From Microbotryum violaceum (Eukaryota), in assembly GCA_001244265.2 (NCBI GenBank), contig CDLV01000004.1, positions 1,116,001 to 1,180,000 on the forward strand: 64,000 nucleotides of DNA, read 5' to 3'. The notes under the pieces were generated by a model. The model had not been told where the DNA came from. It ran no database searches and saw only the letters and a list, made by a program, of their open reading frames with translations. The position numbers and the translations under genes were made by a program. Positions within the stretch are counted from its first letter, which is position 1. Every line of letters begins with the position of its first letter. Below are positions 16,701 through 20,025 of this stretch, in pieces.

Positions 16701-19037
16701 GCTGCACCATCGTTCGCGCCCTCACCGTCGTTGGCTGCATCGTCGTCACCTTCGGCCTTACCCACTGAATCTGAATACTCCGCCGATCCTCTTGACCTCA
16801 TCGGATCACAGCCCCAGGCTCCCCTCGACCCAATGGACACCCCACTCCCAGACTTCAGCACGTACGCGAGCCCGCATCGGCTGAGGAGTCGCCGACGAAC
16901 TCGACCTCATTGGACGCCACTCTCGCGACGAGTCCCGGACGAAATCGATTTCCTCACTCGCCATCACCGCGCGTTCATTGCGACTGACGACGACAACTCT
17001 GACACGAGGCCATCGAACCTGTCAAATCCATTACGAGCGACCCACAGACCTGGCGAGAAGCGATGTCGGGCGACAAACGTGAGGTATGGGCAAGGCCGCT
17101 GCCGATGAGTTCAATTCCATGCGCGACGACTTCAAGGTCTTCACCATTGATGACCGTTCTACAGTACCTGCGCGCGCGACCATCGTATCGTCCAAATTCG
17201 TCTGGAAAACAAAACGGAACGCACTCGGCGAGATCACTGGACACAAGGCACGGCGTCGCGCAAGGCAATCGCCAACGTGACGCATCGACTTCACTGAAAC
17301 CTTCGCACCGGTCGCACGCTTCTCTTCGATACGCTCACTCCTCGCGCTCGCGGCTGCCAACGGGCCTGCATGTACACAAGCGGACATCGACAAAGCCTAT
17401 CTTCACGGCGACCTCGATCACGACATCTGGATGACGGCACCTGCGCGGCTTCGACCTTCCCAGCGACAAGGTGCTTCGGCTGCGACGCTCCATCTACGGG
17501 CTCAAACAGGCCGGCCGAATCTGGAATCGACACATCGACGCTTCGCTTCGCGACCTCGGTTACACGGCAACGCCCACACTACATCGCCCTGTACGTCGAC
17601 GACCTTCTGATGATCAGCCCGGACCTGGCCGAAATCGAACGCGTCATCTCGGGCCTGGAACAACGTTACGGTGTCAAACGCCTTGGACCGGCCGAGTACA
17701 TCCTCGCATCCAGATCAGGCGTCTCAACGACGGCTCTATCGCCCTATGCCAGGAACGGTACATCATGGACGTGCTCGCTCGGTTCCACTTCGACACTACG
17801 ACTCGCGGCGCTACCATCCCATGACCCCGGTCTTTCGCTCACCGCCATTCCGGCCAAGGCACGGAACAGATCAGGTCGTGGTATCTACAGGCAATCGGCT
17901 CGCTCCTCTACATCTCGCTTGGCACTCGCCCCGACATCGCCTTCGCCGTATCTTACCTGGCCCGCTTCGCCAACAACCCGGGCCAGCGCCATTGGATTGC
18001 CGTCAAGCACGTCCTACGCTACCTCCGAGCCACTTATCGCGACGAGCTTCTCTACACTCGTGGTAAGACGGACATCAAGGGCGTGGTAGGTTACTCCGAT
18101 GCCAACTGGGGTGCCTGCGTCGACACATCGGTCTCCACCATGGGTTTTGTCTTCTACATTGCCGGCTCCGCTGTGTCCTGGTCCTCCAAGCGTCAATCGC
18201 GGGTCGCCGACTCTACCACCGACGCGGAATACCTCGCTCTCTCGCATGCTGGCAAGGAAGGGATCTACCTCAGTCAGCTGCTTGAGGAGCTCCATGTCCA
18301 GTCCGGTATCCCCACTCACATCTACACTGACAACGAAGCTGCTGCCGCCGTCGCACGGGACCCTGTCCGCGCATCCGGGACTCGACATATCCGTCTGCGT
18401 GAGCACTTCGTTCGGGACATGGTGAATCGGGGTGAGATTTCTCTTTCGCACGTGGGGACAAGCAACATGGTGGCCGACATTTTTACCAAGGCACTTGGCC
18501 GAAGATTTTTTCCATGCATTGCTATGCTCTCGGCTTGCGCACTCGACATCCACGGCTTGGGTCTGCCTCGCATTCGCGTGGGGGGGGTGTGACAAGTCCA
18601 CTCTCAGCTCGGCAGAGGCGCCTCGGTCGGTGCGCGCACCCGCTAGCCGCCCCCCTGCGCTGGGGACTTAGACGCGCGCGACTGACTCAGCGCGCCAGCG
18701 CCGGGTGGGTCCGTGCGCGTGCCCACTAGGCCGCCCCTTGCGGTGGGGACTTAGGCGCGCGCGACTGCGTTAGCGCGCTAGCAACTTCACCGCGACTGGG
18801 CCTATCCCAGCGCGGGTCCCCTTTCTATTTCTTAGCTTCCCTCTCACCACTTCTGTTCAACAATCGACCTCTCCTGACAGTAGTGGTGATTGTCTCATAG
18901 GTATGCTGAAATAGACCACTTCTGTTCAACAATCAACCTCTCCTGACAGTAGTGGTGATTGTCTCATAGGTATGCTGAAATAGACCACTTCTGTTCAACA
19001 ATCAACCTCTCCTGACAGTAGTGGTGATTGTCTCATA
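13797..19037 (+). mobile_element. Full-length copia A; LTRs 13797-14112 (no extra unit) and 18588-19037 (two extra units)
   Basis: PBS GGTTATTCGCCC; gag-PR-IN-RT-RH in frameshifted pieces; PPT; no matching TSD. Confidence 0.93.
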
Positions 19038-20025
19038 GGTTATTCGCCCATCGACCTACCGCTGGCATGGACACGTCGTCGCCCCTAATGACGGGTGCCC
19101 ACCCAACAATCCCCGCCGAACAGCTCGCCGCACTTACGTCGCTGCTGTCGGGTCTCACCACTGCCACATCCGCCACGTCGTCCGGCACCTCTCGCCCCGC
19201 CTTTCCCAAGCACGCACGCTTGGATGGGCCCAAGACGTTTGCGAGCTGGACACGCCAGCTTCGCCTCTGCCTCGCGGACGACATCCGCTCATACGTCCTC
19301 GACGGGATTGTGCCCGCCGACTGGACACCTTCGCACCGCTCTGCCCGCGATGTCGTGGCACGTGAGCTTCTTGCGAACTCGATCGACTCGGCCGAAGTCT
19401 CGGCAGTCCTCGATGCAATCCCTACCGCTGACCTCACAGCGCCCAAAATGTACTCGACGCTGAAATCGCGGTATGCTCCTGACGACGCCACTTGCACGCT
19501 CGAGCTCTTCTCCCGACTGTGGAGCTTCCGGCCCATGCCTGGCACCGTTGGCGAATTCGACGGCTGGATCATGGAGTTCAAAGCTATTGCGCAAGAAATC
19601 ATCGATACGAAGACCACGATCAACGATGTTCTCGCCACACTCCTCCTCGCCATCGCTCACCCGTCCCTCGAGAGTTTCAAGGCGTCGTTCACGATGAACA
19701 GCGCACTCAACGATCTCTCCCTGCTATCGATTCGCTCGCCGACCGCATGCGTGTTCAACTCCGGTCCACCAACGTCCCCAGCACCCAATCGGCCCTTCTT
19801 GCCTCGTCGTCGTCACGTCCTACACGTCCCAAGTGTCTCGCCTGTCGCAGCCCTTCGCACCGTGTGGCGGAGTGCCCTGTGAGAGCGACACACCCGCCGC
19901 CAGGACCCTGTCGCTCCTGCAAGCAGAATCACTGGTCTTTCGACTGCAAAAAGGCTCTCGGGAACAGCAAAAAGGCCGACACGGCGAACTCAACCGCCGA
20001 CTCGCAACACCATGTCGGATGTATC
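19038..20025 (+). mobile_element. Second copia A internal region (PBS plus gag) in tandem, sharing the LTR 18588-19037
   Basis: PBS and gag MDTSSPL.. follow the 3' LTR of the previous copy directly. Confidence 0.9.

Follow-up and report, generated by a model that had tools for sequence, protein, structure and literature searches.

The 64,000-nt stretch of Microbotryum violaceum DNA analysed here (assembly GCA_001244265.2, contig CDLV01000004.1, positions 1,116,001 to 1,180,000; hereafter the window) harbors four families of Ty1/copia long terminal repeat (LTR) retrotransposons, here termed A to D, whose LTRs carry short repeated units. These units most likely represent a short spliceosomal intron in the 5' leader (R/U5 of the LTR) of a Ty1/copia clade in a Microbotryomycete, the 3' part of the intron being a copy of exon 1. 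The family A LTR at 18588-19037 (Table 1) terminates, on direct reading, in three copies of a 54-nt segment X (ACCACTT...CTCATA; 18846-18899, 18915-18968 and 18984-19037) that recur with a period of 69 nt, are parted by a 15-nt spacer, GGTATGCTGAAATAG, and are followed directly by the primer-binding site (PBS) GGTTATTCGCCC; Tandem Repeats Finder delineates the array as 18846-19040 (period 69, 2.8 copies, 99% matches). The 14-nt core of the spacer occurs five times in the window (67, 5900, 18901, 18970 and, on the minus strand, 20080) against 0.12 occurrences expected, and a search of the window for the spacer found only the units themselves.

An earlier, sequence-only reading of this DNA had taken the 69-nt unit for an intron with donor GTATGC, branch motif CTGAC and acceptor TAG, and all three motifs are indeed present, the branch A lying 23 nt before the acceptor G. 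It had also identified that G with the first base of the PBS. This holds as well: the bases that follow 3' or solo LTRs vary (C, T, G, C, C), so that the family A LTR must end at ...CATA (...CTCATA). The numbers of units it assigned were likewise found, i.e., one in each of the three LTRs so marked in Table 1, two in the LTR at 18588-19037 and none at the LTR ends 14112, 11216, 34715 and 39583, to which a further unit-less family A end at 30202 (minus strand) can be added. Its statement that removal of the unit yields exactly the short LTR is true but offers no evidence of splicing by itself, since the repeat includes the GGT common to spacer and PBS and the same 69-nt deletion can thus be placed in 58 equivalent phases.

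The identity of the elements is clear from their coding regions and LTR ends. Domains in the near-intact older family A element follow the Ty1/copia order (gag, protease, integrase, reverse transcriptase), with Pol_BBD, gag_pre-integrs, rve and SH3_retrovirus in 34745-37819 and RVT_2 in 37324-38769; the family C element (24558-29402) is a copia element too, by its matches to gag_pre-integrs, rve and SH3_retrovirus, and the 262 amino acids (aa) available for family D gave no Pfam match. LTRs read TGTGA...CATA (A and B) or ...CACA (C), a G-run polypurine tract precedes each 3' LTR and GGTTAT... follows each 5' LTR. The PBS sequences of A (GGTTATTCGCCC, 19038-19050), C (GGTTATTAGCCC, 24975-24987) and D (GGTTATGAGCC, 62884-62894) differ in their centre, two to three central positions separating those of A and C from that of D. 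The PBS of family D we take to be of the copia/Ty5 type, pairing with the anticodon arm of the initiator tRNA; the other families may use a different tRNA fragment, and the window contains no tRNA gene. A contig of run X15 carries another PBS variant after a family A LTR end (loose end at 19042). An origin of the spacer from a tRNA or from the PBS was considered and dropped, only GGT (GGTTA in D) being common to spacer and PBS.

The arrangement seen in family A recurs in the three other families, all of which share the order pyrimidine tract, X...AG/GT..., X...YAG. The internal region of family B is ca. 74-77% identical to that of family A, its repeat starts at the homologous position and 12 of the 14 spacer-core bases are the same. 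In its 3' LTR at 40201-40488 the next base is C, and no AG acceptor is formed there; among the readable 3' or solo LTR ends of families A and B, four of five lack the G that would complete the acceptor, and the 3' copy in these families is therefore usually unspliceable at that site. Family C has a 64-nt X ending in ...GAGCAG and two units: the first (68 nt) runs from GTGAGC through a diverged copy, X', to CTTAC and CAG, and the second consists of GTGTGT, AA and a further X (24895-24958) ending in CAG, after which come 16 nt of U5 and the PBS. Family D has a 63-nt X (...CCTCAG) followed by GTTAGTCTTGCAATACT, a second X identical at 61 of 63 positions, 11 nt and the PBS. The repeat comprises X plus GGT in families A and B. 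Families C and D likewise have the exon copy, but their GT lies just outside the repeat; hence the donor GT of these two families is not a by-product of duplication. The spacers of family C cannot be aligned to those of A and B. The unit-less LTR at 330-671 is a zero-unit form in a family C-like lineage.

Table 1 Features of the window that bear on the LTR units, in window coordinates
Feature	Position	Strand	Remarks
Family A LTR with two extra units (TGTGAC...CTCATA)	18588-19037	+	Polypurine run GGGGGGGG before, PBS after; shared LTR between two internal regions
Pyrimidine tract, 17/20 C/T	18826-18845	+	Directly upstream of X1; inferred core-promoter 'ct box', with the start of X1 as inferred transcription start
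X1, 54 nt	18846-18899	+	Proposed exon 1 (with G18900); R-equivalent
Unit 1, putative intron	18901-18969	+	Donor GTATGC 18901-18906, 14-nt spacer core, X2 18915-18968, CTGAC 18943-18947, TAG 18967-18969
Unit 2, putative intron	18970-19038	+	Donor GTATGC 18970-18975, X3 18984-19037, CTGAC 19012-19016, acceptor A19037 + G19038 (first PBS base)
Primer-binding site GGTTATTCGCCCATCGACC	19038-19056	+	gag ATG at 19068, 30 nt on
Family A LTR end, one unit	1-134	+	Cut by the window start
Family A LTR, one unit	5589-5967	+	Solo or 3' LTR remnant
Family A 3' LTR, one unit	20022-20407	-	
Family A (young lineage) 5' LTR, no unit	13797-14112	+	PBS directly after X
Near-intact older family A element	34401-39583	+	Ty1/copia domain order; both LTRs unit-less
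Family B 3' LTR	40201-40488	+	X 40367-40420, spacer GGTATGTTGAAATG 40421-40434 (donor GTATGT at 40422), second X 40435-40488
Second family B LTR, one unit	11886-12431	-	X copies within 11951-12008 and 11884-11941, spacer GGTATGTTGTAATATTG, CTGAC in both X copies
Family C 5' LTR	24558-24974	+	X1 24755-24818; unit 1 24819-24886; unit 2 24887-24958; exon 2 24959-24974; PBS from 24975
Family C 3' LTR	28988-29402	+	Structure as in 5' LTR; X at 29182-29245 and 29322-29385
Family D 5' LTR end	62700-62894	+	ct tract; X1 62730-62792; spacer 62793-62809 (GTTAGT start); X2 62810-62872 (CAG end); exon 2 62873-62883; PBS GGTTATGAGCC 62884-62894
C-like LTR without unit	330-671	-	X 83-85% identical to family C, then directly 14-nt U5 ending in CACA
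MT-A70/Kar4-like host gene	48275-50900	-	Short introns, at least five; its best named relatives belong to Microbotryum and other Microbotryomycetes, in keeping with a basidiomycete

Forms with the unit, and with at least two of them, are also present in another organism's data, because a 99-nt contig of run X17 (mapping to 18881-18979; from either DNA or RNA) reads through the tail of an X, a spacer, a whole X and a second spacer. Contigs of runs X15, X17, X19 and X1 showed no joint of 69 or 138 nt and, among the 18 loose ends listed, none that resembled poly(A); being short and interrupted at X, these contigs do not bear on splicing. Scans for the LTR-end pattern gave no match in metagenome contigs and none in viral contigs, and a protein-guided search of metagenome contigs with a 1024-aa Gag-Pol gave 70 pattern matches, none of which was confirmed.

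The hexamers that stand directly after the AG of the first X are GTATGC (A), GTATGT (B), GTGAGC (C) and GTTAGT (D), with GTGTGT after the X' of family C, while GTNNGY follows AG at 1.2% of the 7893 AG sites in the window. In all four families the last X ends in YAG. CTGAC is found 22-23 nt before TAG in A and in one B copy, and CTTAC 17-27 nt before YAG in the other B copy and in C and D; the units measure 69 (A), 67-68 (B), 68 and 72 (C) and 80 nt (D). For comparison, five introns of the MT-A70/Kar4-like gene were inferred from a Microbotryum protein-to-DNA alignment, with the lengths of four measured by eye (68, 70, 72 and 78 nt). Their donors are GTATGT (twice), GTAGTT, GTAGGT and GTACGT, their branch-like motifs CTGAC, CTAAT and CTCAC, and their acceptors CAG or TAG. 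As in U2-type GT-AG introns, the units have a GT donor within a host-like extended consensus and a host-like length. No paper on GTNNGY was found, and the accessible text of a Cryptococcus Prp16 preprint and of the Microbotryum genome paper did not provide a splice-site consensus. When random 57-nt duplications with a 12-nt filler were simulated (60000 trials), some GT..AG phase appeared in 22% and the full set of intron criteria (GTNNGY, CTRAY 8-45 nt from the end and YAG) in 0.3%.

A transcription start at the first X would agree with the sequence that precedes it. The 20 nt before the first X contain 14-17 pyrimidines in all families (17 or more of 20 occur at random window positions with P = 0.009). 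For Rhodosporidium toruloides, another Microbotryomycete, the accessible sections of PMC4624585 report a ct box that immediately precedes the start point, no TATA box, and a ca. fivefold gain in promoter activity when intron 1 is included. The left edge of the repeat would coincide with the 5' end of the RNA, as would suit a repeat whose extent is set by how far strong-stop DNA reaches. Just before the second X stand A-rich hexamers or similar motifs in all families (AAATAG, AAATGA or TAATAT, TGTAA, CAATAC). When X was folded in the four families, its 5' end paired ca. 35-50 nt downstream in A, B and C (18846-18888, 40371-40414 and 24755-24813, respectively), each time with different pairing sequences; as folding energies were no better than those of shuffled sequences (z -0.1 to -1.1), we claim no structure.

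We postulate that the unit is rebuilt during replication in the following way. Transcription would begin just past the pyrimidine tract, at the first base of X, and the intron, consisting of the spacer and the second X, would be spliced from the 5' end of the RNA. In families A and B, where the acceptor AG needs the first PBS base as its G, the copy in the 3' LTR would mostly be shielded from splicing at this site. Minus-strand strong-stop DNA made on the spliced RNA would be the complement of X. Transfer of this DNA to the last X at the unspliced 3' end would let spacer and X1 be copied in turn and so restore the intron, and each cycle would overwrite the last X with X1. Transfer to the first X would instead give unit-less LTRs, and an unspliced template landing out of register would give two units. 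Predicted joints in the spliced leaders are ...CTCATAG/GTTATTCG (A), ...GAGCAG/GCGTGAC (C) and ...CCTCAG/ATGTGC (D). Every step of this cycle is inferred; what can be read directly is the layout, its recurrence in four families, the splice-like motifs, the host-like length and the concerted evolution of X.

Within LTRs, the first and the last X are 94-100% identical in ten of ten pairs, the few differences being transitions in old copies, and between families identity of X is 62% (A-B), 60% (A-D) or 48-53% (other pairs), with random window segments at 48 ± 5%. Because A and B share the repeat boundaries and the spacer core, the duplication is older than their split, and over this time the spacer has been kept better (12/14 bases) than X (62%); boundaries and spacer are thus not unconstrained across lineages, as they should be in a neutral variant. 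Family C retains similarity in its middle copy X' just at the branch-to-acceptor end (ACTTAC...GCTTGAGCAG), the rest having decayed, and its last X equals X1 at 64 of 64 positions; this pattern would be expected from rewriting that reaches the last copy alone, with selection on the middle copy confined to its splice signals. An X that is homogenised within families and diverged between them is what the strand-transfer model would predict, since strong-stop DNA made on a spliced leader would carry X1 into both new LTRs as their last X; in the standard cycle, with unspliced RNA as the template, X1 and X2 would be handed down separately, without homogenising effect, and the pattern is not predicted.

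As far as sequence data can go, the comparisons argue strongly for a functional intron whose exon copy is homogenised, and we regard it as quite probable that the unit functions as an intron. The complete intron-restoring cycle seems to us to have slightly better than an even chance, and the strand-transfer interpretation offered in the sequence-only reading appears partly supported. In its broadest form our reading is that a fungal copia clade keeps a copy of exon 1 (R) at the 3' end of its leader intron, so that spliced RNA would rebuild the intron in both LTRs, intron-dependent host expression or export could be exploited and LTRs with zero or two units would be shed as by-products; to this we assign a probability of roughly 0.5.

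Several points weigh against this reading. The evidence for an intron comes from genomic sequence, and a single 64-kb window of one genome supplied all four families. Two of the five candidate donors (that of A and the first of C) have C at position 6, where five of five host donors have T; CTTAC, used by one B copy, C and D, falls outside the CTRAY motif of the simulation and was not confirmed in host introns. When fillers were drawn at random next to the real X, 14% looked intron-like, and the GT..AG of family A is one of 58 phases. The LTRs of families C and D contain the acceptor, and for these the model requires either a poly(A) site ahead of it or a 3' copy that is spliced inefficiently. 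If units were often gained and lost, X would be homogenised as well, which makes concerted evolution support and not proof. Subfamilies without the unit have transposed (five of five older family A LTR ends, including both LTRs of the near-intact element), so the unit is not essential. Finally, the only two-unit LTR is one shared between two internal regions and could have been made by unequal crossing-over: the order in 13797-20025 is a 5' LTR without units, an internal region, the LTR with two units, and a PBS with a gag fragment, followed by the inverted 3' part of another copy (20022-21413). This is probably a shared-LTR tandem formed by recombination, in which the zero- and two-unit LTRs need not be sisters of one insertion.

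The most serious alternative, although an unlikely one in our judgement, is a real intron inherited through unspliced genomic RNA, with spliced RNA never serving as template and the exon copy a relic of birth by tandem duplication of an AGGT segment, kept alike by occasional misaligned transfers or unequal crossing-over. Such births were proposed by Rogers and re-enacted by Hellsten et al. 2011 (accessible part of PMC3265369), and families A and B have exactly this form: the intron has the upstream exon copied in its 3' part, AG/GT stands at both copy ends and splicing restores the unduplicated sequence (exactly so in A and B). That zero, one and two units co-exist demonstrates that expansion and contraction happen, and the two-unit array sits at a recombinant-looking shared LTR. 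In contrast to introns of the Rogers type, however, those considered here would lie in the leader of a retrotransposon LTR, with an exon copy that has stayed 94-100% identical to exon 1, with 12-17 nt of filler (75 nt in C) between the copies and, in C and D, with the GT outside the repeat. A functionless copy should have decayed over the divergence of A and B, as X' did in C, yet all ten pairs are nearly identical; loss of the unit would be irreversible, yet the layout persists in four families. Spliced RNA, moreover, retains the PBS and the complete coding sequence, and a reason for its exclusion from the role of template is hard to see.

It is improbable, in turn, that the units reflect neutral copy-number variation of a tandem duplication at the U5 end, generated by template switching of reverse transcriptase or by unequal recombination, with GT, CTGAC and AG as coincidences of phase. 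Family A alone could be compatible with ordinary variation in repeat number, given that a 69-nt deletion in any of the 58 phases yields the short LTR, that some GT..AG phase turns up in 22% of random duplications, that 14% of random fillers placed behind the real X resemble an intron in full, and that the number of units varies both in the window and in the contig of run X17. The recurrence of the layout with donor-like hexamers in four families, including C with its unalignable spacers, is not expected on these grounds, and neither are the rarity of GTNNGY after AG (1.2%), the match of unit lengths to host introns, the better conservation of the spacer than of X between A and B, or the sparing of the branch-to-acceptor end in the decay of X'. 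A related view, in which zero units was the ancestral state and the unit a young accident of one lineage due to ordinary copy-number variation, was given up for the reason that family B has the same boundaries and spacer. Least probable of all is that the spacer acts not as a used donor but as a 3'-end formation or U1-binding signal, setting a poly(A) site inside the second X or suppressing a promoter-proximal one while the repeat of X lengthens R for the first strand transfer: A-rich hexamers do precede the second X in all families, and an LTR element always has to pass over the poly(A) signal at its 5' end (in HIV-1 the major splice donor helps in this), but the YAG at the end of X in all families, the branch-like motif at an intron-typical distance, the host-like unit length and the homogenised X copies would all be left unexplained.

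The intron-restoring cycle, if it operates, touches on a presumed trade-off in the life of retroelements. The RNA of an LTR retroelement has to escape splicing to remain a complete template, retroviruses need special export of unspliced RNA, and many fungi express intron-less genes poorly. An intron rebuilt from a spliced template would be a third solution to this trade-off. In R-mediated minus-strand transfer, strong-stop DNA lands on the homologous 3' repeat, and out-of-register landing deletes or duplicates repeats; the same would account for zero, one and two units here, and the length variants of the LTR would then be by-products of replication. The standard transfer differs in having a single R block and nothing spliced between cap and PBS, whereas here there would be two landing sites, the choice between which decides whether the intron is retained. 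We take the elements to be of the hemivirus type of Ty1/copia (as are copia and Ty5), presumably primed by an internal tRNA fragment, and they resemble these in domain order, G-run polypurine tract and a PBS (GGTTAT) that follows X directly or after 11-16 nt; to our knowledge, no hemivirus-type element carries an intron or an exon repeat in its LTR.

Introns in retroelements as such are familiar, e.g., in the splicing of copia gag mRNA, in Ogre and in Penelope. A cryptic intron is present in Tf2, and in Cryptococcus the SCANR pathway acts on poorly spliced transposon RNA (accessible part of PMC7175516); in C. neoformans, intron removal greatly lowers mRNA accumulation (PMC3744415, as far as accessible). 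The known cases share with the LTR units a spliced retroelement RNA, sometimes tied to expression or host defence, but their introns lie in or between coding regions and persist through the unspliced template, none being described as restored from a spliced one. The literature searched (with few subscription journals covered), including the accessible part of the fungal transposon review PMC7175516, yielded no natural LTR element described as keeping an intron by means of an internal copy of its first exon. The closest analogy is man-made: in the split-intron retroviral vectors of Ismail et al. 2000, as summarised in the accessible text of the review PMC3182074, reverse transcription copies the splice donor from the 3' LTR region into the 5' LTR, so that an intron is rebuilt in the provirus as is proposed here. 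These vectors are engineered and one-way, with donor and acceptor far apart, no exon copy in the intron and no intended use in repeated cycles; the LTR units would be their natural and cyclic counterpart. If this is right, the genomic signature, a donor followed by a YAG-ending copy of exon 1 inside an LTR, would be searchable in other fungal genomes for retroelements with intron-dependent expression.

Some further observations concern the family A copies. A possible target-site duplication, GAGAC, stands on either side of the LTR 5589-5967 with its right copy offset by 1 nt, the other copies being nested or truncated; the offset region (5584-5973) has one extra T between the end of the solo LTR and the right GAGAC, perhaps added at the U5 end without a template or derived from the primer. 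The older family A 3' LTR that ends at 11216 is followed by GGT and then by unrelated sequence (11217-11225; an inverted family A fragment spans 11217-11887), and this GGT probably mimics the start of a PBS by chance or through a deletion. X2 and X3 have A (18935 and 19004) where X1 (18866) and all one-unit copies have G, within TCGA. The A is also found in older subfamilies and, as a minority variant, in runs X15 and X1, and it is either the ancestral base or a transition of the CpG or repeat-induced point mutation (RIP)-like kind; RIP-like mutation at TCG in Microbotryum is mentioned in the accessible text of PMC4469406.

Elsewhere in the window, the MT-A70/Kar4-like gene changes its reading frame near 50020, where no intron would fit; a frameshift, an error in sequencing or a difference specific to the lineage may lie behind this. 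A Ty3/gypsy fragment (RVT_1, RT_RNaseH and Integrase_H2C2) occupies 1856-4369 on the minus strand, and its LTRs were not found in the window, so that it provides no negative control for the architecture of the LTRs. The U3 regions of families A and B contain tandem repeats of their own (18625-18782, 12078-12362 and 40222-40308), of 83 nt in two copies in family A and of 39 nt in two to five copies in family B, the copy number of the 39-nt repeat differing between the family B LTR copies.

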